The notes beneath the pieces are model-generated. The model made no database searches, was not told the DNA's origin, and was given only the letters and a program-made list of their open reading frames with translations. A DNA stretch of 64,000 nucleotides, from NCBI GenBank assembly GCA_001778235.1, contig MFGJ01000007.1, positions 193,476 through 257,475 on the forward strand, given 5' to 3'. Below, one piece after another: positions 5,931 through 62,570 of the stretch (position 1 is the first letter of the stretch; every line of letters begins with the position of its first letter). The position numbers and the translations under genes were made by a program. The stretch comes from Candidatus Falkowbacteria bacterium RIFOXYC2_FULL_36_12. GTDB taxonomy: Bacteria; Patescibacteriota; Patescibacteriia; UBA11705.

Positions 5931-8030
5931 ATGCCGAAAAAAGAAGTTAACAAAAAACCAAAAACTGATAAAAAAAACTCCCAAGCTTATGGTGCTGAAC
6001 AGATTACTGTACTTGAAGGACTAGATCCTGTCAGAAAAAGACCTGGAATGTATATTGGGAATACAGCTGGTGAAGGTTTGCATCATTTGATTTGGGAAGT
6101 GGTAAATAATTCAATTGATGAAGCCATGGCTGGCTACTGTACAGAAGTTGTGGTCAAAATTCTACCGGATAATGAGGTTGAAGTGATTGATAATGGTCGA
6201 GGTATTCCAGTTGAAATCCACAAAGCAACAAAAGTCTCTGCCCTAGAAACCGTAATGACAAAACTCCATGCTGGCGGAAAATTTGGTCAAGGTGGATACA
6301 AAGTTTCTGGTGGATTGCATGGTGTTGGTGTTTCCGTTGTTAATGCCTTGTCTACACTGACAATCGCAAAAGTCAAAAGAGATGGAAATGTCTATGAACA
6401 AGAATATAAAATCGGTAAACCTCAAAAAAAGGTAAAAGTTATTGGAAAAGTAACTATACCAAAAAAACTGGACCCTTTTTTTCCGGAAGAACTGTATAAG
6501 ATGGGAACTTCAATAAAATTTAAACCTGACAGTACAATATTTACTGAAACTGTGTTTGATTGGGATAAAATTTTGAATTATTTGAGACAACAAGCATATC
6601 TGACAAAGGGTGTTAAATTACTTGCCTTTGATCTTCGGGACAAAGATAAACCAAAAGATTTTGCTTTCTTTTTTGAAGGAGGAATAAGTTCCTATGCCAA
6701 ACATCTAAATCACCAAGATAAGCCAATTCATGAAAATATATTTTATGTTGACAAGACCCTTGATGAGGTAAATGTTGAGATCGCTTTCCGTTATATTGAT
6801 GAATATCATGAAACAGTTGTAGCTTTTACCAACAATATTACCAATCCTGAAGGAGGTAGCCATGTAGCTGGATTTAGGACTGCCTTGACACGAACCTTGA
6901 ATTCATACGCTAGAAAACACAATATATTAAAAGAAAAAGATGAAAATCTATCTGGTGATGATGTCAGAGAAGGGTTAACTGCGGTTATAAGTGTAAAAGT
7001 TAAAGATCCGCAATTTGAAGGTCAGACCAAGGCAAAATTGGGAAATGCAGAAGTCAAACCAGCGGTTGATCAGGTGCTGTCAGAATCTTTGGATATATTT
7101 CTTGAAGAGCATCCAAAAGACGCTGAAGCTTTTATTGGGAAATCATTGCTCGCGGCCCAGGCCAGAAAAGCTTCTCGAGCGGCGCGCGAGACCGTTCTTC
7201 GAAAAGGTGTTTTGGAAAGTTTATCACTTCCTGGAAAATTGGCTGACTGTTCTTCAAAAAATCCTGATGAATGTGAACTTTATATTGTTGAGGGAGACTC
7301 TGCTGGTGGTTCAGCGAAACAAGGACGAAGCAGAAATTTTCAGGCAATACTTCCCCTTCGAGGAAAAATTATCAACATTGAAAAAGCCCGCATTGACAAG
7401 ATGTTAGCTAACAATGAAGTAAAATCATTAATAATTGCTCTTGGAACTAACTTTGGCGAGCAAATGGAAATTGGAAAACTACGATATGGCAAAGTCATCA
7501 TCATGACCGATGCTGATGTTGATGGAGCGCACATCCGAACATTGCTTTTGACTTTGTTTTTCCGACATTTTTATCCTTTAATACAAAATGGTAATCTCTA
7601 TATTGCCCAACCACCATTATTCCAAGTGAAAAAAGGCAAAAATATTGAATATGTTTATTCAGAAGAAGAGCTGGAAATAACTTTAGAGAAGTTCAAAAAA
7701 TTAAAAGATGAACCAAAAGCCAAGAAAGAGCAGGAAGAAACCGAGCAAGCTGATGAAGAAATAAAAGAAGCTGATATTGAACAAGTAGAAATCCAAGACC
7801 AAGCATTAAAAGGAGTGTCTATTCAACGATACAAAGGTTTGGGAGAGATGAATCCGACTCAACTGTGGGATACAACCATGAATCCAGAAACCAGGGTTTT
7901 GAAACAGGTGACGGTTGCTGATGTGGATAAGGCTGACGAGGTCTTTGATATTCTAATGGGGGCAGAAGTTGCACCAAGAAAAAGATTTATACAAACTCAT
8001 GCCAAGTCTGTGAAGAATTTGGATGTTTAG
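5931..8030 (+). CDS. gyrB: DNA gyrase / topoisomerase IV subunit B
   Basis: 699 aa carrying the GHKL ATPase motifs (HHLIWEVVNNSIDEAMAGY), the Toprim domain and the C-terminal EGDSAGGS motif. Confidence 0.9.
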   Translation: MPKKEVNKKPKTDKKNSQAYGAEQITVLEGLDPVRKRPGMYIGNTAGEGLHHLIWEVVNNSIDEAMAGYCTEVVVKILPDNEVEVIDNGRGIPVEIHKATKVSALETVMTKLHAGGKFGQGGYKVSGGLHGVGVSVVNALSTLTIAKVKRDGNVYEQEYKIGKPQKKVKVIGKVTIPKKLDPFFPEELYKMGTSIKFKPDSTIFTETVFDWDKILNYLRQQAYLTKGVKLLAFDLRDKDKPKDFAFFFEGGISSYAKHLNHQDKPIHENIFYVDKTLDEVNVEIAFRYIDEYHETVVAFTNNITNPEGGSHVAGFRTALTRTLNSYARKHNILKEKDENLSGDDVREGLTAVISVKVKDPQFEGQTKAKLGNAEVKPAVDQVLSESLDIFLEEHPKDAEAFIGKSLLAAQARKASRAARETVLRKGVLESLSLPGKLADCSSKNPDECELYIVEGDSAGGSAKQGRSRNFQAILPLRGKIINIEKARIDKMLANNEVKSLIIALGTNFGEQMEIGKLRYGKVIIMTDADVDGAHIRTLLLTLFFRHFYPLIQNGNLYIAQPPLFQVKKGKNIEYVYSEEELEITLEKFKKLKDEPKAKKEQEETEQADEEIKEADIEQVEIQDQALKGVSIQRYKGLGEMNPTQLWDTTMNPETRVLKQVTVADVDKADEVFDILMGAEVAPRKRFIQTHAKSVKNLDV

Positions 8031-8087
8031 CTGGGAGTAACTAGTAATTAGAAACTAGGGACTAGGGTTAATAAGAAAAAATATATA

Positions 8088-8120
8088 AAAAAACAGCTGA
8101 AGTTAGTCAGTTGTTTTTTT
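8088..8120. terminator. Bidirectional rho-independent terminator (A-run, hairpin ACAGCUGA/UCAGUUGU, T-run)
   Basis: The hairpin is flanked by A6 and T7. An identical 30-nt copy lies at 8399-8430. Confidence 0.7.
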
Positions 8121-8398
8121 GGATAGTAAGATTGATGTTGCTAAAGCAAGTTTTTTTCAGATAAAGTGATTGATTACGCTCTGCGTGGTACTTTTTGATG
8201 GCAAAAAGTACCCAAAAACCATTGGGGGCTTTAATTGCTACTTATAAAAAACATTTCGTGCTTTGAACACGGCAAAAAGCCCCCAAACCCGAGGCTCACC
8301 ATGTTTGTGGGGATGAATAATAAAATTAATGATTGGTTTTGCTAAAGCATGCCCCAGACCTAGAGTTATCAAGCTTCATTCTTTTTACTTATAAATAA
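8121..8398. ncRNA. Candidate structured non-coding RNA or element bounded by two identical terminators
   Basis: This 278 bp segment has no ORF. It contains stems such as GGGGGCUUU...AAAGCCCCC and GUACUUUUUGAUGGCAAAAAGUAC. Its strand and identity are unknown. Confidence 0.3.
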
Positions 8399-8430
8399 AA
8401 AAACAGCTGAAGTTAGTCAGTTGTTTAAAT
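8399..8430. terminator. Second copy of the bidirectional terminator, serving the minus-strand gene ending at 8425
   Basis: On the minus strand the hairpin is followed by a U-run. Confidence 0.7.
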
Positions 8431-8859
8431 TCTTGTAAATCGTTGCCACCAAGGATTGTCCAATGTGTCAGTGATGAAAATATAACAAACATTACATTCG
8501 GCATTTGGAGTTGTTTTTTCCGAGAATAAAGGACTGGTTTGATGTGGCATGTATGCAGTTAGAACTCTGAATTCAGGGTCATTTGGATTTGTCCCGCCTT
8601 CAATCAGAAAGCAAACCGTCTCAACAAATTGTTCAAAGTCAAATTCTTCCTTTTCCCGTTTCAGTGGCTCGAAAAAAGCAACAACTGCTTTGCGCATCTG
8701 TAAATCTGTTTCAGATCGTCTGCGTGAGTCAAAACCATAACCAAAACTTTCTTCGCCAACAAACACTGACATAGTCTGCGTGGTGATGTAATTTTCACCT
8801 TTTGGGATCCGCCCTGTTACACGACCAATAGCACCAAAAAACAAAACAATCTCTTTCAT
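8425..8859 (-). CDS. Island gene C: hypothetical 144-aa protein (start MKEIVLFF)
   Basis: A GGAGG Shine-Dalgarno sits 7 nt upstream of the ATG at 8859, and the gene has its own TTGACT-17-TAAGAT promoter. Its GC content is visibly higher than the flanks. No recognisable family. Confidence 0.5.
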   Translation of the reverse strand: MKEIVLFFGAIGRVTGRIPKGENYITTQTMSVFVGEESFGYGFDSRRRSETDLQMRKAVVAFFEPLKREKEEFDFEQFVETVCFLIEGGTNPNDPEFRVLTAYMPHQTSPLFSEKTTPNAECNVCYIFITDTLDNPWWQRFTRI

Positions 8860-8980
8860 GCTGGCCTCCGTGGGGTGCTGGGGATGTAAGCATGTTACAA
8901 AAAAAGATTGAAGATTGAAGATCAAAGATCTGTTGATTATACTGAATCTTACAATAATTAATAGCCAAAGTCAATAAAAA

Positions 8981-9001
8981 ATTTACGAAATTTTCGTAAA
9001 T
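8981..9001. promoter_or_regulatory. Perfect palindrome ATTTACGAAA-T-TTTCGTAAAT just upstream of the gene C promoter; candidate operator
   Basis: A 10+10 inverted repeat lies 7 nt beyond the -35 element (plus-strand 8969-8974). Confidence 0.5.
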
Positions 9002-12681: not shown

Positions 12682-12790
12682 GCGAGAAAAGAATAAAGCA
12701 AGTACAGAATAAAGCGAGTACAGTTATTATTGATGATTGAACTGTGAAGAAATAAATACAGAAATTTAGATATTAAAAAACAAGTTGAAT

Positions 12791-13366: not shown

Positions 13367-14197
13367 ATGACACAGTTTGATCAGTTGTACAAAGATGCGA
13401 TTCTGCGAATAATGAATGAGGGGTTCGAAGAATTGAATGAGAGGACAGGTCATAAAACTAGGATTATTCCTGGTCTGACTTTTGAATTGGACCAAGGCTT
13501 TCCCCTATTAACCCTAAGAAAAATACCGATTAAAATATTTGTAGCGGAGCAAATCTGGTATATTATGGGGAGTAAAAATCCTGATGATTTTGTCAGTAAA
13601 TTCACAAAAATCTGGGAAGATTTCACTGAAGAAGATGGAACAATCCCAGCAGCCTATGGACACCGCTGGCGAAGTGCTTTTGGGAGAGATCAACTTGGAT
13701 TATTAATTCAACATTTACAAGATTCTCCAGGATCAAGACATGGGGTGGTAATTACCTGGGATCCGAGAGAAGATGGACTGGGCAATCCAGAAACAAAAAA
13801 AAATGTTCCCTGCCCTTATACCTGGACAGCAAATATTATAGGAAATAAATTACATATACATTCAATAGTCAGAAGTAATGATATGATGCTCGGTTGTCCT
13901 CACGATGTAGCTGGATTTGCTTTACTTCAAGCAATCTTGGCGGCAAAACTCCATGTTCAACCTGGTAAATTAACTCATTCAATCAGTAATGCTCATATTT
14001 ATGATATTCACTATGAGCAAGCTTGGGCATTAGTTGAAAGAATAAACAGCCATCCTCCAATTTACTTTGAAGCTCAAGATAACTACTTTGACCGAGCAGA
14101 AAAAGGTGACGAAAGCTTGGTTGATGAAATAGTAAGTAAGATAGAAAGACAATATAAACCGTCTGAACCGATTAAGGGAATGAAGATAGTGTTGTGA
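13367..14197 (+). CDS. thyA: Thymidylate-synthase-family (ThyA-like) enzyme; Asp at the position of the dUMP-specifying Asn177
   Basis: It aligns without gaps to the E. coli ThyA core (FPLLT, YGHRWR, the PC nucleophile at Cys149, RS, ALL). LGLPFNIAS is replaced here by LGCPHDVAG. Confidence 0.85.
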   Translation: MTQFDQLYKDAILRIMNEGFEELNERTGHKTRIIPGLTFELDQGFPLLTLRKIPIKIFVAEQIWYIMGSKNPDDFVSKFTKIWEDFTEEDGTIPAAYGHRWRSAFGRDQLGLLIQHLQDSPGSRHGVVITWDPREDGLGNPETKKNVPCPYTWTANIIGNKLHIHSIVRSNDMMLGCPHDVAGFALLQAILAAKLHVQPGKLTHSISNAHIYDIHYEQAWALVERINSHPPIYFEAQDNYFDRAEKGDESLVDEIVSKIERQYKPSEPIKGMKIVL

Positions 14198-14284
14198 TAC
14201 AAATATACGAAAACTACAAATATTACAAATGCATAAAATGGTCTAGGTATTTGTAATTTCTGTAATATTCGTAAATTCGTAATT
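14198..14284. repeat. R3 inverted-repeat element (solo, MITE-like): forward arm ..ATACGAAAACTACAAATATTACAAATGCAT, spacer, reverse arm GTATTTGTAATTTCTGTAATATTCGTAAATTCGTAAT
   Basis: Its arms are near-identical to the repeats flanking the GxxExxY gene at 34996-35036 and 35428-35470. It ends 1 nt before the start of the DHFR gene. Confidence 0.7.
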
Positions 14285-14803
14285 ATGAAAACAAGAATTG
14301 TTATGGTCATGTCGGCTGATGGCGTGATTGCCAAAAGTTCAAATCACAACCCAACCGAATGGACATCAAAAGAGGATCAGGAATTGTATAAAAAAATAAC
14401 CAAAGAGGCTGGGGTTATGATTTTTGGGCAAAGCACATATGATGCCATTGGAATGCCTTTGCCCGGCAGATTGAATATTGTTCTAACCAGAGAAAATCGT
14501 CAAGACATTCCAGGGACATTGGAGCATAAACAAGGAGACTTGAAACTGATTTTGGAAGATTTGGCTAAACGGGGTTTCAAACTAGTGATAATTGGTGGAG
14601 GAACTATTGTTAATTCAAGATTCCTTGAGGCTGGTTTGGTTGATGAACTCCAGCTGACTATTGAACCAAAACTTTTTGGGGCTGGCCTACGACTGTTCGA
14701 TCAAATTGATGTCAATATTGATCTCGAGCTGATTGAAGTCGTAAAATTGAATGATAATACATTGAACCTGATTTATAAAATAAAAAAGACAAGTAATTTA
14801 TAA
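14285..14803 (+). CDS. folA: Dihydrofolate reductase family protein (RibD-C/DHFR fold)
   Basis: VMSADGVIA...IFGQSTYDAIG...RLNIVLTRE...IIGGGTIVNS..VDELQLTIEPKLFGAG matches the DHFR/RibD_C profile, and the gene is adjacent to thyA. Confidence 0.7.
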   Translation: MKTRIVMVMSADGVIAKSSNHNPTEWTSKEDQELYKKITKEAGVMIFGQSTYDAIGMPLPGRLNIVLTRENRQDIPGTLEHKQGDLKLILEDLAKRGFKLVIIGGGTIVNSRFLEAGLVDELQLTIEPKLFGAGLRLFDQIDVNIDLELIEVVKLNDNTLNLIYKIKKTSNL

Positions 14804-14910
14804 TTTTTCTTTGTGAAAATAACTGGTCAAGACTTCATTTATTTTTTATTAACAACGATTAATATTATTTTATAAATTTACAAAACTTAATTATAATCAA
14901 AAAATAATCT

Positions 14911-15561
14911 ATGCCGATTTTAACCAAGAAACAAATTGAAGAAAAAATCAGTCGGGGGGAAATTGTTTTTGAACCAGCCTTAGATGCTTTTCAAACACAA
15001 CCAGCATCAGTTGACTTGAGGATTGGTTGGAGTTTTTATATCCCCTACACCTGGAAATACTGTGAAAAAGGTAGGATTGCTGTGGTTGCTGACCACATGG
15101 ATTACTCAACAACTCATGAAAATTTCCAGTTGATAAAACTAAAACCCGGACAATATTTTGAAATTTTACCAGGAGAGATGGTAATTGCCTCAACACTGGA
15201 AAAAATCAACTTAAACGCCGGCAATCTATCGGGTGTCATCCATCCAAGAAGCTCGGCTTCAAGGAGAGGTCTAGCAATTGAAAGCGGAGTAGTCAACCCA
15301 AATTTCACCGGATATTTAACAATACCAATGGTAAATCAAAGTCATCATGTGATAAAAATTTATCCAGGTGAGAGGTTGTGTCAAATTTTATTTCACGAAT
15401 TGACAGCTGAAATTAACAAAGAAGAAAGTAAAACTCATGGACTGTCAGAAGATAAATACCAAAGCTCAACACCATATAATATGGACAGCAAACTTGATCC
15501 ACAGGAAGAAATTGATTTTCTAAAATCAGGTAATATTGATGGACTGAAAAAAAAACTTTAA
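14911..15561 (+). CDS. dcd: dCTP deaminase / dUTPase-superfamily protein
   Basis: ASVDLRIG, RSSASRRGL and GVVNPNFTG are motifs of the Dcd family. Confidence 0.75.
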   Translation: MPILTKKQIEEKISRGEIVFEPALDAFQTQPASVDLRIGWSFYIPYTWKYCEKGRIAVVADHMDYSTTHENFQLIKLKPGQYFEILPGEMVIASTLEKINLNAGNLSGVIHPRSSASRRGLAIESGVVNPNFTGYLTIPMVNQSHHVIKIYPGERLCQILFHELTAEINKEESKTHGLSEDKYQSSTPYNMDSKLDPQEEIDFLKSGNIDGLKKKL

Positions 15562-15569
15562 ATCTTGAC

Positions 15570-16124
15570 TTGCCTAAACAGAAAGATGATTTACCACAAT
15601 ATCCGCACCTGCCAATTGATAGAAAATTTAATTTTGTTGAACTTTATGACCAATGGATGACAGAAGCGAGAAAAGCATCAGAGGATCGTGTGGTTTGTTC
15701 TTGGTGGCCGACTGGTGCTGTATTGGTCAAAGATAATAAAATCATTGGACGAGGCTCAAATGGTGGTAGATTTGTCCCACTTTGTCCAAGGTATTTGAAT
15801 AATTGTCCAACTGGTACTGGCTATGAATACTGCACAGCAGAATGCCAGCAAACCTCTCACGCAGAAGTTTCAGCCATTAATGATGCAATAGCTCTTGGCA
15901 ATAGCCCAGAAAACGCTGATTTGTATTTGTTTGGACATTGGTGGGCTTGCGAGAGTTGTTGGGAACATATTATAAAACATAAGGTAAAGAATGTTTTCTT
16001 GGTCAGAAATGCTCACAAAATTTTTACCAGAGAAAAAAGAGTTCAGCTAATGGAAGAAATAAAAAACCGTTTAGAAAAAAAAGAGCTTCTACGACCAATG
16101 GACATATATTGGGATGTGAAATAA
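15570..16124 (+). CDS. dCMP deaminase (cytidine/deoxycytidylate deaminase zinc motif HAE...CxxC)
   Basis: The motifs TSHAEVSAINDA...WACESC are present. Confidence 0.75.
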   Translation: MPKQKDDLPQYPHLPIDRKFNFVELYDQWMTEARKASEDRVVCSWWPTGAVLVKDNKIIGRGSNGGRFVPLCPRYLNNCPTGTGYEYCTAECQQTSHAEVSAINDAIALGNSPENADLYLFGHWWACESCWEHIIKHKVKNVFLVRNAHKIFTREKRVQLMEEIKNRLEKKELLRPMDIYWDVK

Positions 16125-16157
16125 TAAAATTAATACTTTTTTTGAATTTTATAAACT

Positions 16158-16709
16158 ATGTCAAAAATAATTTTTGGATTTGTTGGGGAAATTGCCAGTG
16201 GAAAAGGCACGGCTTGTGAATATCTAATAAATAATTATCAAGCAGGATATTATAGATTTTCAACAATAATAAGGGATATTATAAAAAGATTGTATATTGC
16301 TGAAGACCGTGAACATCTACAAAAAATGTCTTCTGTATTACGGGAAAATTTTGGACAGGATATTTTTGCCAAAGTAATGGCTGAAGATGTAAATAATGAT
16401 AAACATACAATAATCTGCGTTGATGGTATTCGGCGTCAAGATGATATTATATATCTAAAGAAAATACCTGGGTTTATTTTGGTTAATATTTTCGCTGATT
16501 TAGAAACCCGTTATCAAAGAATTGTAAAAAGAAGTGAAAATCAGGATGACAAAGCAAAAACCTTTGAACAGTTCAAAAAAGACCATGAGAATGAAAATGA
16601 AGCCTTGATTGAGGAAACGGGCAAACAAGCAAGTGAGAAAATTGACAACAATGGGACAGAAGCTGAATTGGTTGAACAGATTGAAAAAATGGTTGAAAAA
16701 TATAAATAA
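16158..16709 (+). CDS. P-loop deoxynucleoside-monophosphate kinase, T4 gp1 (dNMP kinase)-like
   Basis: The GEIASGKGT P-loop and the CVDGIRRQDD segment resemble the T4 gp1 motifs 'SGVKRSGKDT' and 'PDTRQDHE'. Confidence 0.5.
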   Translation: MSKIIFGFVGEIASGKGTACEYLINNYQAGYYRFSTIIRDIIKRLYIAEDREHLQKMSSVLRENFGQDIFAKVMAEDVNNDKHTIICVDGIRRQDDIIYLKKIPGFILVNIFADLETRYQRIVKRSENQDDKAKTFEQFKKDHENENEALIEETGKQASEKIDNNGTEAELVEQIEKMVEKYK

Positions 16710-16738
16710 AAAAAGGCTCCAACATTGTGAAGCACAAA

Positions 16739-16984
16739 TTAATTTTTCAGTTTTACAACTTCGGTCCGACCTCCACCACTGGTGCCAGTGGGATTGAAGG
16801 AATATTTCATGACATTGGTTGTCTGATCATAGTAAAGAGCCGTGAGTTGGTTTTTCTTCCCCGCAAAACCGATGATGATAAAGCGATTATAAGGCTTTTG
16901 AATGATAAGTACAACAGAAAAATCAATAATAGCGCCACTGGTCAAGTTAATGTGGACAAAATCACCTTTTTGCGGTAAAACCAT
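16739..16984 (-). CDS. Hypothetical small protein (81 aa)
   Basis: An ORF filling the gap between convergent genes; weak support. Confidence 0.3.
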   Translation of the reverse strand: MVLPQKGDFVHINLTSGAIIDFSVVLIIQKPYNRFIIIGFAGKKNQLTALYYDQTTNVMKYSFNPTGTSGGGRTEVVKLKN

Positions 16985-17044
16985 TGCAGAGCCTCCCTTG
17001 TGGTGATGGGAATATCAACCTATTTATAATCATTTTTAAATAAA

Positions 17045-17896
17045 ATGTCAACTGTAGAACAAATAAAGGAACTGCTGTATTCAGCCAAAAGTGATGTATT
17101 CATGAAATCTGAATTTGAATATTTATATCGGGAAACAATTGATTTTATTATCAATAAATACCAAGAATTCAGTAAAACGATTGAAGATACAACTGCTCTA
17201 GAAAACATGTTGCCATGCCTGGCTTTTGATAATTTCAAAATTGAAAAGAAAACATCCTCCGAGCAACAACTAGAAAATTCAGTGTCTGATATTATCAGAA
17301 ATGAAAAAAGTGAAATGGCCGAGCTCACTCTAATAAAATATGCAAAAGATGAGGAGAATTTCTTAACTAAACTGATTTTGTTTCAACAGTCAAGTTTATC
17401 ATTTAATCAGATTGAAGAAAAAATAAAGTTAATGACTCTGGAGCAGAAAGAAAAGTTGATTAATCTTTATTTTGACACAACAAAGGACAAAAATGTCTTT
17501 AATTTTTTCCATTATAATTTTCAGATGACATGTACTATCCCAATACTAGAAAAAATAAAACCAATCTTAGCCAACAAACTGCTGGTACAAAAACTGGAAA
17601 TCTGTAATGGATATTACACCCCGCCTAAAATCCTACATTCTGGTTACCATGGCGACTATATTTTGATCATGAAAAAAGCCATAGATGCTTACAAAAAAAT
17701 GCTCCCGACTTTATCCACACAAGCTTTTTACATTGTACCTCTTGCATTTATGCAAAAAATATTATTTACTGTAAAAGTAGTTGATTCATCTTTAATACAA
17801 TTGCCTTTCAAACAACAACTATGGCAAAAAATAAAAGAGGTCAACCCAACTATCTATGAACAAATAAATAAATTAATAACCATAGGGGAGGAATAA
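17045..17896 (+). CDS. Hypothetical protein (283 aa) embedded in the dNTP-metabolism cluster
   Basis: No recognisable motifs; it is not ThyX (no RHR...S motif). It is translationally coupled to the MazG-like gene (stop 17896, next start 17899). Confidence 0.5.
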   Translation: MSTVEQIKELLYSAKSDVFMKSEFEYLYRETIDFIINKYQEFSKTIEDTTALENMLPCLAFDNFKIEKKTSSEQQLENSVSDIIRNEKSEMAELTLIKYAKDEENFLTKLILFQQSSLSFNQIEEKIKLMTLEQKEKLINLYFDTTKDKNVFNFFHYNFQMTCTIPILEKIKPILANKLLVQKLEICNGYYTPPKILHSGYHGDYILIMKKAIDAYKKMLPTLSTQAFYIVPLAFMQKILFTVKVVDSSLIQLPFKQQLWQKIKEVNPTIYEQINKLITIGEE

Positions 17897-17898
17897 CT

Positions 17899-18210
17899 AT
17901 GATACATAACAAATTAGTCAGGGATTTGATCCCTCAAATCATTGAAGATGACGGAGATGAGGCGGTGACAAGAGTCTTGGAAGATGATGAATATTATCAA
18001 GCCTTAAAAGACAAATTACTTGAAGAGGTCGAGGAATACTTAGAATCAGACGACCACGAAGAATTAGCGGATGTCTTGGAAGTAATCCGAGCGCTGGTAG
18101 ACTATCATTCAATGACATATGAAGACTTGGAAAATACCCGAAAAATGAAATTACAAGAACGGGGGGGATTTAGTGAAAGGATATTCTTGTCAGAGGTAAT
18201 TGAAAATTAA
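17899..18210 (+). CDS. MazG-like / phosphoribosyl-ATP pyrophosphohydrolase-like NTP pyrophosphatase
   Basis: 103 aa all-alpha protein with the EEVEEY...ELADVLEV acidic metal-binding pattern of MazG/HisE-like house-cleaning NTPases. Confidence 0.6.
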   Translation: MIHNKLVRDLIPQIIEDDGDEAVTRVLEDDEYYQALKDKLLEEVEEYLESDDHEELADVLEVIRALVDYHSMTYEDLENTRKMKLQERGGFSERIFLSEVIEN

Positions 18211-18246
18211 ACAGGAAGGCGATTTTGTCGCCTTCTTTTATACAAT

Positions 18247-19491
18247 ATGAGTAATGGGAAATTTATTGTCTGTGAGGGAGGGGAAGGTTCGGGAAAAACA
18301 ACTCAAATAAAAATGCTCGAACAAAAATTGACTGAAAGAGGCTACAGTGTTTTGTTAACTCGCGAACCTGGAGGAACAAACTGCAGTATTGCTGAAGAAA
18401 TCCGCGCTATTTTGAAAAACCCAAACAATAAAAATATGACGGCCGAGACTGAATTATTTTTGTTTCTAGCTTCCCGAGCTCAACATGTAAAAGAAATAAT
18501 AAAAACCGCACTTGAACAAGGAAAAATTGTATTATGCGATCGATTTGAGGCATCAACTTTTGCTTATCAACATTTTGCACGAGGACTTTTTGATCTTGAA
18601 GAAGTAATGAAAATAAACTCTTTTGCCACTGGCGGTCTGATGCCTGATTTAACGGTATTACTTGACATTGAACCAGAATTTGGATTGAAACGGATATCAG
18701 ATAACACTAACCGAGGAAATCTCCAGGACGATAGATTTGATAGCGAGCAAATTGAATTTCACCAAAAAGTCAGAAATGGGTTTCTAGAATTGGCCCAAAA
18801 GCTAGCTAATTGGCAGGTGGTGCAGGCAACTGATTCGGTTGAAAATGTTCATATTAATGTTTGGCGCCAAGTAGAAAAAATATTACCTCAAAATAATCAA
18901 AGAATTAATCTACTGACTAATCAGCGCAGTACTGATCGAGGAAAATTGGAAGTTATTTGTGGCAGTATGTTTTCAGGCAAGACAGAAGAATTGCTTCGAC
19001 GAATGAAACGAGGGCAGATCGCGAATCTGAAACAAAAACTTTTTAAACCTGACAAAGATACTCGATATTCAGCCAATGAAATAAAAACCCATGATGGTCT
19101 TGGAATGACTGCAATAAATATTCCAGCACATCAACCAGCCATGATCTTCAACCTCATTGAGCCTGAAACAGAAGTAATTGGTATTGATGAAGTTCAATTT
19201 TTCTCTCCAGAAATAGTCCAAGTCTGTAATCAGCTGGCGGATCAAGGGATTCGGGTTATCGTAGCTGGACTTGATCTTGATTTTGAAGCTAACCCATTTG
19301 GTCCGATTGCAGGGCTGATGGCAACGGCAGAACATGTAAGTAAAGTCAGGGCAGTCTGCGAACAGTGTGGGGAGGATGCCAATAGGAGTTTCCGAATAAG
19401 TCATTCGCAAGATACTTTTCAGCTGGGAGAAAAAGACAATTACAAAGCCCTCTGCCGATCCTGTTATGTCAAAGCAATAAATAAAAAGTAG
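18247..19491 (+). CDS. tmk: Fusion protein: thymidylate kinase (aa 1 to about 215) plus thymidine kinase (aa about 231-414)
   Basis: The N-terminus has CEGGEGSGKTTQ...REPGG (Tmk). The C-terminus has GSMFSGKTEELLRR, VIGIDEVQFF and the zinc ribbon CEQCG...CRSC (Tdk). Confidence 0.8.
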   Translation: MSNGKFIVCEGGEGSGKTTQIKMLEQKLTERGYSVLLTREPGGTNCSIAEEIRAILKNPNNKNMTAETELFLFLASRAQHVKEIIKTALEQGKIVLCDRFEASTFAYQHFARGLFDLEEVMKINSFATGGLMPDLTVLLDIEPEFGLKRISDNTNRGNLQDDRFDSEQIEFHQKVRNGFLELAQKLANWQVVQATDSVENVHINVWRQVEKILPQNNQRINLLTNQRSTDRGKLEVICGSMFSGKTEELLRRMKRGQIANLKQKLFKPDKDTRYSANEIKTHDGLGMTAINIPAHQPAMIFNLIEPETEVIGIDEVQFFSPEIVQVCNQLADQGIRVIVAGLDLDFEANPFGPIAGLMATAEHVSKVRAVCEQCGEDANRSFRISHSQDTFQLGEKDNYKALCRSCYVKAINKK

Positions 19492-32228: not shown

Positions 32229-33278
32229 ATGGAAACAGCAATTGTTTTTAAGCTTGGGATCCTAACTTCTATTTCTTTTTTGGTTGCCATGTGGGGGACT
32301 CCGATCCTGACTCATTTTTTATACAAATTCAAACTTGGCAAACAGATTAGAAGTGCAAATTCAGCTCCAATTTTTGCTAAGTTTCACAAAGGAAAAGAAG
32401 GTACACCAACTATGGGGGGAATATTGATCTGGGGAACAACTGCTTTCTTGACCATACTTTTCTACATCCTATCCCAAGCTTTTTCCTCTGATTTTTTTCA
32501 CAACCTTGATTTCTTGTCTCGAGAACAAACACTCTTACCACTTGGGGTCTTGCTACTCGCAGCTATAATTGGCATGATTGATGATATTTTGGGAATAAAA
32601 AAAATTGGTCCAAAGGGCGGTGGTATGAGTATTCTTTTTCGTCTAGGTCTGTATGCTGTGGTGGCAACAATTGCGGCCTTGTGGTTTTTCTTCAAATTGG
32701 ACTGGGATGTTTTCCATGTTCCTTTTCTTGGCAATTTCATGTTGGGTTGGTGGTACATACCTCTGTTTATTTTTGTGGTTGTTGGGACGGCTTTTTCAAT
32801 CAATGAAACTGATGGGCTCGATGGATTGGCTGGGGGCATTTTAATGATTGCTTTTGCTGCCATGGGAGCGATTTCTTTCACCCAGGGCAGATTTGATCTT
32901 GCAGCTTTTTGTGCAGTAATAATCGGAGCTTTGCTGGCATTTCTCTGGTTCAATATTAATCCAGCAAAATTTTTTATGGGGGATACTGGCGCCATGAGTT
33001 TGGGTGTAACTCTTGGAGTAATTGCCATGTATACCAATACTGCTATTTTATTAATTTTAATTTTATTAATCCCTGTAATAGAAACTTTTTCCGTTATAAT
33101 TCAGGTTTTATCAAAAAAAATTCGCAAGAAAAAAGTATTTCAGTCCGCACCGGTACACCATCACTTTCAAGCGCTTGGTTGGGCAGAAAGCCAGATTGTA
33201 ATGAGATTTTGGTTGATTGCAATTGTAGCTGGCGTGCTTGGTGTAATTTTATTTCTACTCGATAAAGGTTGGTACTAA
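32229..33278 (+). CDS. mraY: Phospho-N-acetylmuramoyl-pentapeptide transferase
   Basis: Polytopic membrane protein with a typical MraY profile (NAPIFAKFHKGKEGTPTMGG). Confidence 0.9.
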   Translation: METAIVFKLGILTSISFLVAMWGTPILTHFLYKFKLGKQIRSANSAPIFAKFHKGKEGTPTMGGILIWGTTAFLTILFYILSQAFSSDFFHNLDFLSREQTLLPLGVLLLAAIIGMIDDILGIKKIGPKGGGMSILFRLGLYAVVATIAALWFFFKLDWDVFHVPFLGNFMLGWWYIPLFIFVVVGTAFSINETDGLDGLAGGILMIAFAAMGAISFTQGRFDLAAFCAVIIGALLAFLWFNINPAKFFMGDTGAMSLGVTLGVIAMYTNTAILLILILLIPVIETFSVIIQVLSKKIRKKKVFQSAPVHHHFQALGWAESQIVMRFWLIAIVAGVLGVILFLLDKGWY

Positions 33279-33283
33279 AATTG

Positions 33284-33370
33284 CGAGAACAGCAAGTACA
33301 GCAAGTAAAGCGAGAACAGCCCGCCTACGCTAAAGCTATGGCGGGTAAACGAGAACAGCAAGTAAGGCAA
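33284..33370. repeat. R1 intergenic repeat copy (9-mer tandem plus CCCGCC..GGCGGG hairpin) inserted between mraY and murD
   Basis: Contains the hairpin CCCGCCTACGCTAAAGCTATGGCGGG, identical to the one at 2580-2605. Confidence 0.8.
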
Positions 33371-33403
33371 ATAAATTTGAAAATAAATTAATATTAATAA
33401 CTT

Positions 33404-34992: not shown

Positions 34993-34995
34993 TGA

Positions 34996-35036
34996 TGCAA
35001 ATTTACGAATACTACAAATATTACAAATGCACATAA
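34996..35036. repeat. R3 repeat, forward arm (AAATTTACGAATACTACAAATATTACAAATGCAC) flanking the GxxExxY gene
   Basis: Its reverse complement is found at 35428-35470. Confidence 0.7.
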
Positions 35037-35427: not shown

Positions 35428-35470
35428 CAGTCGTAGTATTTGTAATATTTGTAGTATTCGTAAATTTGTA
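35428..35470. repeat. R3 repeat, reverse arm (TAGTATTTGTAATATTTGTAGTATTCGTAAATTTGTAA), ending 7 nt before the ftsW ATG
   Basis: Inverted copy of 34996-35036. Confidence 0.7.
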
Positions 35471-35477
35471 ACCAAAG

Positions 35478-53021: not shown

Positions 53022-56000
53022 TTACGGTTTTATTAAGATTCGTCCAGCAAAGCGGGTCCAAGGCTCTGGGGCTGTTCTTGAACATTCACCTTCATAACAT
53101 CCATCGGTGACCCAGGTAGATTTCTGATGGCCACATGATCCATTGCACCAACCCCAGCTGTCTTTAACCTGAACCTGCGGAATAAATTGGCAGGCTTGTT
53201 CGGTGGCATTCCAGCAATTTGAGATGACGCTACCACTACAGACCCGGTCACCCTGTCCCTCGCAGGTGTATCGATGTTCAAATTTGAAAAATTCTTGAGG
53301 ACTGCAGGCATCGGTTGTATCACCAAAAACATCATATTGAGTACCAAGACATGAAGTGCCGACAGGACAATCTGTTGTTTCGCGACAAGCATAATCTGGA
53401 ATATATTTTCCAGCATTATCAATTTTACAACGCTGGAGCAATTCACCGGCTAATTGCTGGCAAACTGGTTTGTGATTTTTCAATTTACCTTCATCCAAGC
53501 CAACGACTGTGCTACCATCATTCCAATCAACCAGAACTGAAGTTATTGGCATTTGATTGGAGTTGGCCCAAGCATAGAATGTCATCTGGGCAGAATAATC
53601 CTCGCCTGAATAACGAATATCGCCTCGAGATTGAGTACCAATACTGATGGTATTAATATCAGCGGCTGAAGTTTCATTGCCAGTAATCGGATCAGAATTA
53701 CCGGTAAAGACAACTCCGGCAACAATTGGAGGCTGATGTGAATTGGTTAAGGCAAAATCACCAGCGACTGGCATAGAACCAGCAAGATTCACATATTTAT
53801 CATTTTGATATATCCATCGATTATAAACATTGGCAAATAAATTGTTGATGAAGACACTATAGCCTGATGACTTGGTAACATTGTCGCAATTGGCTGTTTC
53901 TCCACCTTCACAACTGATTGGCTTACCGGCTGTATGGGCATTGTTGCCTAAGCCAGCGAAAAATGGTGTACCACCTGGATTTTCAGCTAGATCAGTGCCA
54001 TCATCATTGGTTGAGTCAAATGGGACATAGACAGGATCACCTTCATCTGTACTAACAGCAGAACCATAGGCACTACCAAATGGGTTTAAGGCAGTAGTTG
54101 GAGACAAGCCGTATTCAAGAGATCTGGTAGTCGCGTCCCACAATTTATCATGGGTTGCTCCAGACTCTAGTACAAGGTTATCCCCAGTCTTTAAATATTT
54201 ATAGAAATTGTCAGTATAAGCTTTGTTACTACCAAGAGCATCTTCTTCTACAACCTGAATAACATCCTGACAATATTCACCTTTTAATAAATCAAGGGTA
54301 AAATCCTGCCAACCAATACTGTTGGAATCATCGCAGATAGAAGCCCAGACACCTTTGAACTGATCATTTTCATCAAACAGCACTCTAACACCGAAATAAT
54401 TATCCTCACCCCAACAATGACTGTTTATCTGCCGAGCACTTTGAGCTAATGTATTATAGTTACAATAACCAACTTGGCTCTGGTCTGACTGACAGTACCA
54501 AATAGTTTCTCCCTCAACTTGTTGGTTGGCATTATTGTTGCAAGGGAATTGAGCTGGGTTTAGGTCATAATCTGTAGCTGGATTACACTGAACATTGGAA
54601 CAGTAGTTACCATAATAACTGTCCTTAATACATTTTCCATTGCCACAATCATTATCTTCGGTACAGCCTTGTGATGACCAATTTACACCATGCAAGACAC
54701 CTGCTGGAATAGGCTTAAAAACATCTTCTGCATCACCAAGAACTTCATTGGTAATCAAATCTTTATTTTCTACTCCTCCATCCTTGACAAACATGAGATA
54801 TTTATCATCATCAAATTCACCAAGTTTCTTGCCACTGCCACCATATTGATAGAGGGTGTCACTCTCAAGGAATCGGCTGGAGACAAAATCTTTTTCAGAC
54901 CAAGTAATCTGCCAATAAGTCCATTGACGATATTTGTCTTGATCACGAGTGAAATTGTAAGTCGAGAGATTGCCTGTGACCAAAGTATTTGGAGCTGAAC
55001 CACTTGGATTAATAGACCGAGCTGATTTTTTGAAGAAATTGTAACCTTGAAAGTCTTGGCTGTGACTTTTTTCATACCAGGTTGTAGCTGATTCACCTTC
55101 GCACCAATCTTCGTCTTGACCTTCATTGCAAGCAAAAGAAAAGCCTATTAAATCTTGTTTATAAAGAGGTTCACCACTATAACCAGTGAAATATTCGCGA
55201 TAATCATTGCCACCTGAAGGGATATAATAACGATAATCATCAAAAATCCTGGCTCGATAGGAAATCGGATCTTCGTACGGTGTATCATCTGTTTCTAATC
55301 CGGCTGCACCGAGACAGTATAAACGACCACCATCATTTTCAAAAGCATTTGGATCATAACCAGCTTCATCATACTGGGCATATAGATCCTGAAGACCGGA
55401 CAATGAATCAACAGGATACCAGGACAAACAAGCGGTGTCGCCCTGCCCACTAAGTTTGAGACTGCCATCTCGTTCAAGACAATATCCCTGCATGCCAAGA
55501 TATTTTACCCGATCAATATCCTTCTTCATACACATACCGAGCTGTCCACTGTCACTGCAGTCATATGATTCGCACATTGTACTTCGATCAATAGCATTTC
55601 TGGTAATGTTGTCATCCTCTGTAATCAGACCAGCGCAAGCACATTGCCTATCTGGAATATCCTGACAAAAGCCGACTTTGTCAGTTTCAATATATTGGCT
55701 GATTGAATTTGGAAAATATTTGTCTATATATCCGCCACCAAAACTAACCTTGGTATAAGCACAACCGCAGGCAAAATTTTCATCGCCTTCGCAGGTCAGA
55801 ACATTTTCATAGGCTTGGGCAGTTTGATTGCCTAACTTTTTAACACTGGCATTGAATGGAGAGTCTGCCTGCGGATAAGCTCGGCATTCAGCAGAACTGG
55901 CGCTGATAATATCAGCGGTAGCAACTCCTTCAACGCAAACATCACCAAGACAGCGACGGCCAGCTCCGCAGGCGTCATCTGAAGTACATGTTTGACTAGT

Positions 56001-59000
56001 AAGATGAACCAGACGATAGTCTTTTGGTAGAGCATTGTCACGAGCATTTATATTGTAGGAATTATAAAATTGTAGTGGATATCTATTTGAAATAGAATAA
56101 CCACTGTAATCAAGCTGTCCCCATGAAACTCCCTGCGTTCGGCGGACTTGAGTATAATTGGTTGCATTTAATAATTGATTGGTTGTAAGGAGTGAATCTG
56201 ATGGACCCTCACTGACAAAATGACTACATTGACCAGTATTCTCTGCCTCACCAATAGCATCACAAAGGCCAAGTCCCTGACAGACGAATTTCGAAGTGTT
56301 GGTAACTGGATCAAAAACAGTTTGTCCGCTCTTGCAGTCATACCATTCTGCACATTCGCGATCACGGACAACTTTTATTATACGATTTGAATCCTGAAAA
56401 ATATTAGCTTCATTGGCAGCGTAACACAAGACAGACTCATAAGTACATTGATTAACTCCGACTGGGCCAGCACTGGCACTCGGGGTTGTCCCGAGCAGTG
56501 CGAAAACGCTATTTGTAATTGCAGTTCTTTCTACGGAATTAGTGTCTGGTTGGTTAAAAATAGCTCTGACCTCTGGGCAATAATTTGTGTGCAGAGAGCA
56601 ATCAATATTTAAATTTTCTAGTAGTAATTTCAAACCTTGGAGTGCCTGATCAGTGGAATTGGCAAGAGGAGAAACACCTCGACCACCATCAGCAGAACTG
56701 GCTTCATAGGTTGAAGCAGAATTAAACAAAAGCTGATTAAATCCTTGGGCATTTTTGACAGAAGTGTCATTGAATAATAGACAGCCATCTTTTTCACTAA
56801 CAGTAGAGCAAGACTGGATGTCTTCATTGTTTAAATAATAATAAGCTGAACCTTTGGTTGAGCCACCTTCAACATCAACTGGATCAAGAAAAGCAGTACA
56901 TGAATCATATTTACTCTTGCATTGACCAACCCAGCCATCATAGGTGGCAGTACTTGAATGCAATAAATGACCCGTGCCATCAGCGTAATAATCAAAAGTT
57001 CCAGACGGACAAGAATCTTCAGTGCCTGTGACGAACCAACCTTCATTGCCGTCAGAACCTACCTTGTATTCACAAGTGCGTTCACCCGGCTCCTTGAAAT
57101 AATAAGTGTTGTTGTCAGAAGTAGTAAATTCATCACAGCGATTATCTCTGCCGAGGCATAAGTATTTATCAAGATTATCAAAATCTAATTTGAAAAAGTT
57201 AGTAGCCCAATTATCAGACTCTATTTGATTGTTCTGATCATAATTTGGGACGCCGAGCATGGTACAACCAATACCAAATACTTTACACCTAACATCATCA
57301 GATAGGACTAAGTACATCAAATTGTCTTGATCGGTTGTAAAGGCTCCATTGTCATTATCATAAGATTGACTAAATGGGTTAGTCGAATTTTGGGTATCAA
57401 TAACTGCTTGACAGCCAACTGCTGACTGACGGCAAATATTGCGAAAACCTCGAAGTGTCTGACTGCCGGCAACACTACTTTCAAATTCACGACAACCAAG
57501 CTGGGCTTGTGGCAAATATTGTTTGGACAAGGTCTGATCGCAAGCTGTCGGAGTTGACCAACTATTAGTAATCAAATAATGTGTATCGCTAAGTCTCTTG
57601 ACTTCAATACTATCAAAATAAATCGTGCCACTATTTGATTGGATATTTATTTCATTAACCGCTTCGGTTGGAACAAATATGGCTGTATCATAATGTAAAA
57701 ATTGTGTCTGATCAGCCGGAGTTGACTGGATTTCCACCCTTGACTCAAGGCTTGAGCTACCAAGATTAATATCAGCTCGGGCAGTTGAACCAGGGCTCTC
57801 TGCCCAGAAGGAAACAATATATGATTCACCTGGAATAAGGGAGTTTGATAATCTACGACCGGAGGTTTGGCCAGAAGTGAGCTTCAATGATTTTCCGCCA
57901 TTGATTGAAGACCGTTGACTGATTTCTCCTCCAGTCCAGATTGTACTGGCATCAAAAGTGTCATTTAACAATTGGTCAACATCATTGGCTGTATTACCGC
58001 GGTATTCACGACAGCCAGCATTTGATTTATCACATGACTTGCTAAAATCAGGGTTAGCCCAGAAAACACACTCATTGTCAGCTCGCCATTCACCACCTCG
58101 ACTAGTGCATTGGATCTCTGCATCATATTTAAGTGTTCGGCGGTATGGATGACAATTTTGGCTACATAAAACTAAATTATCTAAAATATAATATGAAACA
58201 TTGCCATTTTTATCATAAAGTTCACGGCATTCAGGAAAATTTATTGGGTCAAAAGTTGACGGACTACATTCACGAGTTATAGGCGACTTCTGGACGACTT
58301 TTGGTACAGAATTATTCATCTCAAACTGATGTGCCTGGAGTTGATAACCAGAAACATCGGTTCCGACCCAAGTATAATAAGTGCCACAACTTGTATCGGT
58401 TTCAGGATTGTCTGATTTTTTGCAAAGTCTAAGATCAGAATAATATTCAGTTCCTTCACCACCTGCATCTAAATCATCTAAATTGGTAAATTCTTCACAA
58501 CTGACTTGATTAGCTGAACAGCTTTCAGCAGTTGATGGCATGAAATATAATGGGAACTGGGTTGAAACAAAATTTGTAGAGGCCTGGGAATAAGTCGCAT
58601 ACCCAACACACTGTGAAGGACAGAGATCTTCTGGTGAAGCAACAGCGGTAACGCTGGTGCCACCATCGGTTGGATTGAAGAGCTGACAGCCAACTTCTTC
58701 AGCGGCACAAAGCTCGGCAAAGTCAGAACATTTTTCTGAATTATTACTTGTTTTATCAAGAATATCTGAAACATTAACTGGGGTATACCAAGTTGTTTCA
58801 CCTTGTCTTATCCCACGACTAAAGGCTGGATCAGTATATAAAGCTGAATCATAACAGCCATAATAATCAGGAGCAATTTTGATAAAATCCAAACCAATAG
58901 TCCCATAATCACTGTAATCATAAACTTCAAATGGACTGACTGCTTCTGAAATTTGGACTTCATCAATGACTGAACTCTCAATGCCTGAAAAACGCATTCC

Positions 59001-62401: not shown

Positions 62402-62505
62402 AAGCGAGACAGCGAGTACAGCCCGCCTACGCTAAAGCTATGGCGGGTAAACGAGAACAGCCCGCCTTCGCTAGGTGTAGCTATGGCGGGTAAACGAGTA
62501 AAGTA
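62402..62505. repeat. R1 intergenic repeat copy with two CCCGCC...GGCGGG hairpins
   Basis: Hairpins at 62421-62447 and 62460-62490. Confidence 0.8.
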
Positions 62506-62570
62506 ATAAATAAAAAATTTTACAAAAAAAATAACCCTTGGAATAAGGTTGTTAGTTTAGGGAAAAATTT

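Follow-up and report, generated by a model that had tools for sequence, protein, structure and literature searches.

The 64,000-nucleotide stretch analysed here (the window; GenBank assembly GCA_001778235.1, contig MFGJ01000007.1, positions 193,476 to 257,475 of the forward strand) comes from Candidatus Falkowbacteria bacterium RIFOXYC2_FULL_36_12, a tiny groundwater bacterium that belongs to the Candidate Phyla Radiation (CPR, Patescibacteria). It carries a cluster of nucleotide-metabolism genes at window positions 13367-19491, an interval that extends exactly from the start codon of a homologue of the thymidylate synthase ThyA to the stop codon of a Tmk-Tdk fusion. In no fewer than 487 species genomes of CPR, the sole thymidylate-synthase gene seen at this locus bears the residue by which mutants and phage enzymes are switched to deoxycytidine monophosphate (dCMP) as substrate. 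We propose that a large group of CPR bacteria probably makes thymidine via 5-methyl-deoxycytidine nucleotides, a route which has so far been described only in phages.

In the scheme that we rate at slightly better than even, the CPR operon would work in a 'cytosine-first' order, from dCMP via 5-methyl-dCMP to a thymidine nucleotide. The ThyA homologue, in which Asp replaces the equivalent of E. coli Asn177 and which is hereafter called ThyA(Asp), would methylate dCMP using methylene-tetrahydrofolate, which yields 5-methyl-dCMP and dihydrofolate, and the neighbouring dihydrofolate reductase (DHFR) would restore tetrahydrofolate. A co-evolved enzyme of the dCMP-deaminase family would then convert a 5-methyl-deoxycytidine nucleotide into the thymidine nucleotide, and thymidine monophosphate (dTMP) would be phosphorylated by Tmk, here joined to the salvage enzyme Tdk. 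In most CPR, a protein with the Dcd fold retains Asp and Tyr of the dUTPase type and most likely cleaves dCTP and/or 5-methyl-dCTP as a pyrophosphatase, which is the role of MazG in the phage module, and it would either supply dCMP or clear 5-methyl-dCTP; in the window genome, where its catalytic Asp is Asn, it would perhaps only bind nucleotides. A small kinase and a MazG-family protein would be accessory, and a protein of 283 amino acids (aa) would be a catalytically dead relic of ThyX. All substrates and products in this scheme are predicted from the residues, homologies, synteny and exchange with ThyX described below, and the DNA itself would be mostly canonical.

The ThyA homologue, its partner enzymes and their phage relatives

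The first gene of the cluster (13367..14197, + strand) encodes a ThyA-family enzyme (PF00303, 165 bits), the residues of which were read from a MAFFT alignment with E. coli ThyA, T4 gp42 and the 120 best homologues. Canonical thymidylate synthases possess Asn177 and His147. Instead of these two residues, which serve the recognition of deoxyuridine monophosphate (dUMP), the window protein has Asp and Pro. Asp177 recurs in 120/120 protein homologues and in 80/80 fetched genomic loci, and Pro147 in all 120 homologues and in 79 of the 80 loci; in alignments with PDB sequences, 'LGCPHDVAGF' of the window protein stands opposite 'LGVPFNIASY'. Furthermore, the window protein has Phe at Trp83 and His at position 127, with Phe83 and either His or Gln at Arg127 among the 120 homologues. 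The catalytic Cys146 and, for deoxyribose and phosphate, Arg21, Arg166, Ser167 and Asp169 are retained invariantly in the CPR family, and Tyr94, Glu58 and a C-terminus resembling that of thymidylate synthases are kept likewise. It has been reported that the exchange N177D changes thymidylate synthase into a dCMP methylase and that positions 177 and 147 are the best separators of cytosine-modifying ThyA homologues (PMC8670742). Arg and Ser at positions 166/167 are markers of deoxyribose substrates (PMC5175136).

An Asp at the equivalent position (Asp179) is also found in T4 gp42, which makes it necessary to distinguish methylation from hydroxymethylation. Hydroxymethylases give off tetrahydrofolate and can do without DHFR (PMC5175136), and the T4 enzyme has an open folate site without a C-terminal tail. 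The window protein, in contrast, ends with a tail of the thymidylate-synthase type (..KIVL, aligned to ..PVAI of E. coli) that is missing in gp42, and it is linked to DHFR. Because this tail and the linked DHFR imply, if indirectly, the release of dihydrofolate, methylation is favoured over hydroxymethylation. The sequence identity of the window protein amounts to 33-36% with phage ThyA(Asp) enzymes (Pamexvirus, Bradleyvirinae, Rhodobacter phage), 27% with E. coli ThyA and 25% with gp42. The model TIGR03284 is barely reached (109.9 bits at a cut-off of 108.35), and the scores with the thymidylate-synthase equivalog models NF0024xx, NF010393 and TIGR03283 are far below their high cut-offs. The product of 13367..14197 is thus best described as a predicted dCMP C5-methyltransferase (5-methyl-dCMP synthase).

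The deaminase gene (15570..16124, + strand; PF00383, 48.5 bits) encodes a zinc enzyme of the dCMP-deaminase family that retains HAE and CxxC. It belongs to a CPR-specific lineage that comprises 68 of the 69 CPR deaminases linked to ThyA(Asp) and has an invariant GH.W.C..CW. Its identity to the corresponding domain of the ThyX fusion that is introduced below is only 24%, and BLAST gave no match between the window enzyme and the deaminases of the phage modules. We predict that it deaminates a 5-methyl-deoxycytidine nucleotide and yields the thymidine nucleotide. The DHFR-family protein (14285..14803, + strand; RibD_C / DHFR_1, PF01872 67 bits, PF00186 54 bits) shows weak similarity to its counterpart in the phage modules (E 1e-5 to 2e-6).

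The Dcd/dUTPase-fold protein (14911..15561, + strand; PF22769 93 bits) exceeds the cut-off of TIGR02274 (105 versus 92.8 bits) and is publicly named dCTP deaminase; an identical protein is present under the accessions of several sibling metagenome-assembled genomes. The catalytic Glu of the deaminase (E. coli Glu138) is replaced by Pro, both here and in 69 of 72 relatives, and by Ser in the other three ('LTIPMVN' opposite 'ITLELFN' in PDB alignments). In contrast, the phosphate motif RSS..R and the dUTPase-type motif G.(V/I)D..Y.G, Asp128 included, are retained in 71 of 72 CPR relatives. Because Glu138 is lost while the phosphate and dUTPase-type motifs are kept, the family resembles a pyrophosphatase that does not deaminate. 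The coexistence of a canonical dut gene with the Dcd-like gene within 5 kb of ThyA(Asp) in 15/80 loci speaks against a plain dUTPase. The CPR family has the dUTPase motif 3 with its catalytic Asp, whereas the window protein has Asn and Phe there ('VVNPNF' opposite 'WVDPGF'); Asp128 is changed to Asn only in this protein and in its nearest relative, locus L024 (VVNPHY). Hence, the window copy may be restricted to nucleotide binding. When proteins are clustered at 90% identity, the Dcd-like protein falls together with ENA gene calls of 543-709 aa, possibly the result of read-through or fusion across neighbours. The initial annotation had set its reading against the case that all members are ordinary housekeeping orthologues with canonical specificity residues; this is not what was found, as ThyA has Asn177 changed to Asp and His147 to Pro, and the Dcd-like protein Glu138 to Pro and Asp128 to Asn.

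The comparison with phage hypermodification clusters, which had also been suggested, led to phage relatives of the ThyA enzyme. Among 50,697 phage records, the best matches of the window ThyA are siphophages of Rhodobacter, Roseobacter, Achromobacter, Xanthomonas (Bradleyvirinae) and Pseudomonas (Pamexvirus), with 33-38% identity. All three phage loci that were opened contain a module of a MazG-like nucleoside triphosphate (NTP) pyrophosphatase, ThyA, dCMP deaminase and DHFR, and Asp177 is present in the phages RcSimone-Hastad, phiH2 and Mallos. Several features are common to the CPR and phage enzymes and not found in E. coli ThyA, namely AAYGYRWR.HFGRDQL, WDP.EDGLG..NVPCP, Phe83, HIYD.HY and the C-terminal tail. 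The four-gene module of MazG, ThyA, deaminase and DHFR was seen in about 40 IMG/VR contigs. It is also carried by Xp12, a member of Pamexvirus in whose DNA 5-methylcytosine (5mC) replaces all cytosine (PMC9206674). Five of seven deaminase-linked ThyA(Asp) enzymes, plus that of Xp12, reportedly made 5-methyl-deoxycytidine (5mdC) in an in-vivo assay, the linked deaminase mSCD-B5 converted 5mdCTP into dTTP, and some linked phage deaminases were active on 5-hydroxymethyl-deoxycytidine (5hmdC) too; the system was presented as viral (bioRxiv 10.1101/2024.12.05.627091). A literature search joining Patescibacteria or CPR with dCMP methylation, 5-methylcytosine, unusual ThyA or Dcd gave nothing relevant.

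The CPR operon resembles the Xp12/Pamexvirus module in that it contains the same ThyA subfamily (Asp177, Phe83, signature motifs, thymidylate-synthase-type C-terminus), next to which genes for a zinc deaminase, a DHFR-family protein and a protein of the NTP-pyrophosphatase type are linked. Unlike the phage module, the CPR version belongs to the chromosome of a cell and is conserved by vertical descent, its genes are embedded with tmk, tdk, dut and gatB, and it is exchangeable with ThyX in sister genomes. Moreover, its pyrophosphatase slot is taken by the Dcd/dUTPase-fold protein (Glu138 to Pro) and that of the phages by MazG, its deaminase is of another lineage, and its end product is probably dTMP and not 5mC DNA. 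Only two viral contigs carry a ThyA(Asp) of the CPR type, with 55-56% identity (L089 and L090, IMG/VR 3300031521_000456 and 3300025858_000007); their further genes include RNA ligase, polynucleotide kinase, exonuclease and a weak terminase match, and they look like phages, perhaps of CPR hosts, with a host-type enzyme.

Distribution among CPR bacteria and exchange with ThyX

A scan of species-representative genomes found relatives of ThyA(Asp) in at least 487 species genomes, of which 80 loci, bearing CPR/Patescibacteria names or, often, generic automatic labels, were fetched and viewed with flanks of at most 10 kb. Neighbours were counted within 3 kb of the ThyA homologue in the 57 loci from other species that had at least 3 kb of flank on both sides. 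The Dcd-like gene was found in 52, the dCMP deaminase in 51 and DHFR in 48 of these 57 loci, so the clustering around ThyA(Asp) is not due to chance. Tmk (23/57), the kinase (21/57) and canonical Dut (11/57) were further neighbours. ThyA(Asp), DHFR, the Dcd-like protein and the distinct dCMP-deaminase lineage are a conserved CPR module in synteny.

Sister genomes that were found through the 283-aa protein have the same slot built in another way. In locus L002 (GCA_964413735.1), the region 7079-8986 encodes a 635-aa fusion of dCMP deaminase with a long ThyX in which the RHR motif is intact, and it is followed by the kinase, Dut, homologues of the 283-aa and 103-aa proteins, Tmk and gatB. The MazG-family proteins of close, ThyX-carrying relatives are 79% and their ThyX-like proteins 41-44% identical to those of the window. 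The Dcd-like gene tracks ThyA(Asp) and is missing from the ThyX-type locus. The set of ThyA(Asp), DHFR, Dcd-like protein and deaminase on the one hand and deaminase::ThyX on the other are therefore interchangeable cassettes, which argues for thymidylate as the output of both. The same end product is suggested by Tmk, which lies close to ThyA(Asp) in the 23 loci mentioned above.

The L002 fusion would channel dCMP to dTMP within one polypeptide. Further fusions were encountered, such as a 741-aa Tmk::ThyX protein in the representative search (P0137), and the loci L031 (4304-5509), L053 (9283-10482), L019 (13611-14825) and L026 (15087-16391) contain ORFs (open reading frames) of about 400 aa with matches to Dut as well as to the Dcd-like protein, a fusion of Tmk with Dut and one of the kinase with Tmk. 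It thus seems that genes of this operon have often been fused in CPR.

Accessory genes, repeats and chromosomal setting

According to Pfam and NCBIfam scans and ORF reading, eight solid genes lie on the + strand across 13367-19491. The initial annotation had counted nine consecutive same-strand genes; the 335-bp gap 16710-17044 contains only an 83-aa + strand ORF without matches or an 81-aa ORF on the opposite strand. The concentration of thymidylate and deoxynucleoside monophosphate (dNMP) metabolism in one locus, also claimed there, is confirmed by the matches to the ThyA, DHFR, Dcd, deaminase and Tmk-Tdk families.

The kinase gene (16158..16709, + strand) encodes a small P-loop nucleotide kinase with an RRQDD segment (AAA_17/AAA_18; PRK08356, 60 bits), which is similar to archaeal and CPR kinases of UPF0200/PRK08356 and has Sulfolobus SSO1041 as best PDB match. 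Its presumed resemblance to the dNMP kinase gp1 of T4 is rejected in the form stated before. A match to phrog_139 'dNMP kinase' (1e-16) exists at profile level only and indicates remote relatedness. Pairwise similarity is missing, as gp1 (1DEK) was not matched in PDB at E <= 1, and the sole tblastn match among the 50,697 phage records was Paenibacillus phage Tripp (3e-4), with T4-like phages absent. The kinase accompanies the ThyX-type operon as well. It also matches the N-terminal domain of the anti-phage dCTP deaminase NF041025 (7e-9), with a weak match of the neighbouring deaminase to the C-terminal domain (0.0086). Unlike in NF041025, these are two separate genes in reverse order and in a housekeeping context, the scores are far below the 400-bit cut-off, and the kinase is missing from most ThyA(Asp) loci.

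The 283-aa protein (17045..17896, + strand) had been regarded as a candidate new component. Instead, HMM search, hhalign and structure prediction identify it as a degenerate homologue of ThyX (Thy1) that is restricted to a small Falkowbacteria-related clade and lies outside the conserved module. Only three close homologues were found among 5.8 billion proteins. When 1.8 billion representatives were searched with a profile, 139 matches were obtained, of which 10/10 tested were ThyX (PF02511), and hhalign of the family with the ThyX alignment resulted in a probability of 99.8% (E 7e-28). In long ThyX proteins, the homologous part is the C-terminal Thy1 repeat. An AlphaFold2 (AF2) prediction with four sequences was unusable (pLDDT 50); a further model reached pLDDT 92.8 and its top Foldseek matches were all ThyX (probability 1.0), but the input alignment held true ThyX, so that the fold is not independent of the homology. 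Pairwise BLAST with the ThyX part of the L002 fusion gave nothing significant, and the family profile had no ThyX match among PDB sequences. The protein shares the ThyX fold with PF02511, including the long tandem-domain and deaminase-fused forms. Unlike these, it lacks the RHR motif (aligned 'LAN/ANK') and the Arg-containing C-terminal loop LRS..GH.SYRRIA, the former being replaced and the latter deleted in 8/8 family members. We predict that this dead ThyX relic is inactive as thymidylate synthase.

Only 2 nt past its stop codon starts the gene of a 103-aa house-cleaning NTP pyrophosphatase of the MazG superfamily (17899..18210, + strand). No Pfam or NCBIfam model matched the protein directly, and the MazG-like assignment made before is upheld by family membership: its 151 homologues are named in their sources as nucleoside triphosphate pyrophosphohydrolase or MazG superfamily, some of them carry PF01503, PF12643 or PF03819, and the acidic motifs EEVEE and EELAD are legible in the window protein. 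It is about 50% identical to proteins of Bacillales and Streptomyces, and the family is common in Firmicutes and Actinobacteria. The view that a T4-type kinase and a MazG-like gene are hallmarks of phages is therefore weak, given that this pyrophosphatase family is common in bacteria and that the kinase is without gp1 similarity and is also found with ThyX.

The cluster ends with the Tmk-Tdk fusion (18247..19491, + strand), which was correctly recognised before (PF02223 171 bits, PF00265 185 bits). TIGR00041 (194 bits) covers residues 1-203 and NF003296 (235 bits) residues 227-411. Two relatives, L004 and L008, have separate genes for Tmk and Tdk; in L006, L007 and L024 the two are fused.

The 81-aa hypothetical ORF (16739..16984, - strand; NCBI A2533_02910) is without family matches and has a terminator-like hairpin on the minus strand at 16733-16716. 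It occupies the position of dut in relatives, and L024 has a canonical dut there. A dut pseudogene in the gap was considered, and tblastn with the Dut proteins of two relatives was empty. The window genome is thus without a locus-linked dut, while its Dcd-like protein is without the catalytic Asp too.

The intergenic region between thyA and the DHFR gene is filled by a palindromic, AT-rich repeat (14198..14284, unstranded), the arms of which (14195-14238 and 14247-14282) are 89-94% identical to 34993-35036 and 35436-35471. These distant arms flank a 126-aa PD-(D/E)XK (PDDEXK_3) gene inserted in the mur/ftsW cluster. The arrangement suggests a small mobile or hairpin-forming element. This robust repeat lies inside the cluster, whereas the borders by repeats R3 and R1 described previously were not found: the 3' border is repeat-free, and on the 5' side there is only a weak 9-nt tandem repeat (12682-12725) with a minus-strand ORF in between. 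Intergenic repeats at 2565-2646, 12682-12725, 33274-33373 and 62407-62506 consist of a 9-nt tandem unit (GCGAGTACA-like) beside a conserved 69-nt element with a GC-rich hairpin, and a 21-nt tandem array of about six copies is located near the window end (63590-63739).

The cluster is located on the chromosome between nusG-rplK-rplA and gatB, and the slot secE-nusG-rplK-rplA ... gatB recurs in many CPR genomes. Housekeeping genes are found throughout the window, such as those for L25, FtsW, GyrB, MiaA, Mur ligases, MraY, MiaB, a class-V aminotransferase, a class-I aminoacyl-tRNA synthetase, BipA, MsrA and KsgA. The GC content varies between 0.32 and 0.41 without a compositional break at the cluster, and no phage structural, integrase or replication genes were found within the 64 kb. 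Because of the conserved housekeeping position, the housekeeping content of the window and the uniform GC, the cluster is not a prophage or phage-derived island, which contradicts the initial annotation of a phage module rather than a cellular operon. What remains of that view are the atypical nucleotide enzymes with relatives in phage modules; the phage origin and the hallmarks cited for it do not stand. Scans for promoters and terminators remained at background level. The largest ORF of the window by far encodes 2819 aa (53022-61481, - strand).

Competing readings and consequences

Several points weigh against the cytosine-first reading. For the CPR proteins, all substrates are deduced from residues and from phage homologues that are only 33-38% identical. 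The sole characterised linked phage deaminase uses triphosphates and not 5mdCMP (bioRxiv 10.1101/2024.12.05.627091), and BLAST detects no resemblance between it and its CPR counterpart. Beyond the locus flanks of at most 10 kb, these genomes may encode a further, canonical ThyA or ThyX. Moreover, dCMP deaminase, DHFR, a dUTPase-fold protein and Tmk are also the set of the canonical dUMP pathway, the Dcd-like protein of the window does not have the Asp expected for hydrolysis, and we only infer that 5-methyl-dCTP is excluded from DNA.

The last point leads to a reading that we regard as unlikely, in which the same enzymes deliver their product into DNA as in Xp12. The Dcd-like protein would clear dCTP, 5-methyl-dCMP would be converted to 5-methyl-dCTP, possibly by the neighbouring kinase, and part or all of the genomic cytosine would be 5mC at replication, with the deaminase diverting some of the pool to dTTP. 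The set of NTP pyrophosphatase, ThyA(Asp), deaminase and DHFR indeed mirrors the phage module of about 40 contigs (PMC9206674; bioRxiv 10.1101/2024.12.05.627091), and a phage deaminase acting on 5mdCTP implies that a 5mdCTP pool exists (bioRxiv 10.1101/2024.12.05.627091). Furthermore, the kinase near ThyA(Asp) in 21/57 loci matches the phage dNMP-kinase profile, and the Dcd-like gene co-varies with ThyA(Asp) and is not found in the ThyX-type locus. However, ThyX occupies the same slot in close relatives, and a switch of the dTMP route is simpler than a switch of DNA chemistry. The kinase occurs with ThyX too, and the presumed dCTP-clearing enzyme is without its catalytic Asp in the window genome. 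We found no literature report of fully methylated CPR DNA, which is weak evidence. When the window and 84 CPR loci were scanned for motifs of C5 DNA methyltransferases, none turned up, a result that is uninformative since the loci are housekeeping regions. The prediction that module-bearing CPR incorporate 5-methyl-dCTP at replication, with much or even all of their genomic cytosine being 5mC and the Dcd-fold protein clearing dCTP, appears to us a shade less likely still.

Rather improbable is an ordinary thymidylate operon, in which the enzyme would methylate dUMP despite Asp177, dUMP would be provided by the dCMP deaminase and the Dcd-fold protein acting as dUTPase, and DHFR and Tmk would complete the pathway. 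A canonical role exists for every gene, the public names are thymidylate synthase and dCTP deaminase, TIGR03284 is just reached, and the genes stand in a housekeeping context, where they are exchangeable with the deaminase::ThyX fusion. Indeed, the CPR operon has the protein families, the folate cycle and the Tmk step in common with the canonical dTMP pathway (Dcd or dCMP deaminase, Dut, ThyA(Asn177), FolA and Tmk). It differs by the Asp of ThyA, by a Dcd homologue without the catalytic Glu and by the predicted methylation before deamination, which would bypass dUMP. The constancy of Asp177 and Pro147 through hundreds of species, in place of the canonical Asn and His, speaks against dUMP as substrate, as do the turn of N177D mutants to dCMP (PMC8670742) and the nearest phage relatives, which fall into the 5mdC-making group (bioRxiv 10.1101/2024.12.05.627091). 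The high-cut-off thymidylate-synthase equivalog models are far from being reached, and a Dcd-fold dUTPase would be redundant with the canonical dut near ThyA(Asp) in 15/80 loci.

A hydroxymethylase like T4 gp42, the 5-hydroxymethyl-dCMP of which would be deaminated to 5-hydroxymethyl-dUMP or used for modified DNA, is very improbable. Asp177 is common to both enzymes, some linked phage deaminases accept 5hmdC (bioRxiv 10.1101/2024.12.05.627091), and the T4 hydroxymethylcytosine system (gp56, gp42, gp1) likewise consists of a pyrophosphatase, an Asp-bearing C5-modifying ThyA homologue and a kinase. In contrast to T4, the CPR ThyA is methylase-like, with the tail that closes the folate site and with DHFR linked in 48/57 loci, though hydroxymethylases need none (PMC5175136). 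Its 25% identity to gp42 is the lowest of those determined, the CPR kinase has no detectable gp1 similarity, and no genes for glycosyl- or other transferases lie nearby. Finally, the initial idea of a phage-derived island or prophage remnant with a DNA-hypermodification module is scarcely credible: ThyA(Asp) has phage relatives, and a copy of the CPR type, 55% identical, is present on two IMG/VR contigs that also bear phage genes, but the identity to phage enzymes is otherwise at most 40%, the window has uniform GC and no phage structural, integrase or replication genes, and the rplA-gatB position is kept in many CPR lineages with relatives in at least 487 species genomes.

To our knowledge, thymidylate synthesis from dUMP is regarded as universal in cells, and pre-replicative base substitution is known so far only in phages. 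If the cytosine-first reading is true, a major radiation of bacteria forms dTMP via 5-methyl-deoxycytidine nucleotides and bypasses dUMP, and metabolic reconstructions as well as the annotations 'thyA', 'dcd' and 'dCMP deaminase' would have to be reread in thousands of genomes. Enzymes for 5mC nucleotides, such as are now used in methylation sequencing, could then be obtained from cells by way of CPR genomes, and an evolutionary link between the CPR pathway and the phage module of the Xp12 type would be plausible. Moreover, it would raise the testable question whether 5mC enters the DNA of CPR bacteria at replication. Should the reading with 5mC in DNA be the true one, these bacteria would be the first cellular organisms with pre-replicative base substitution.

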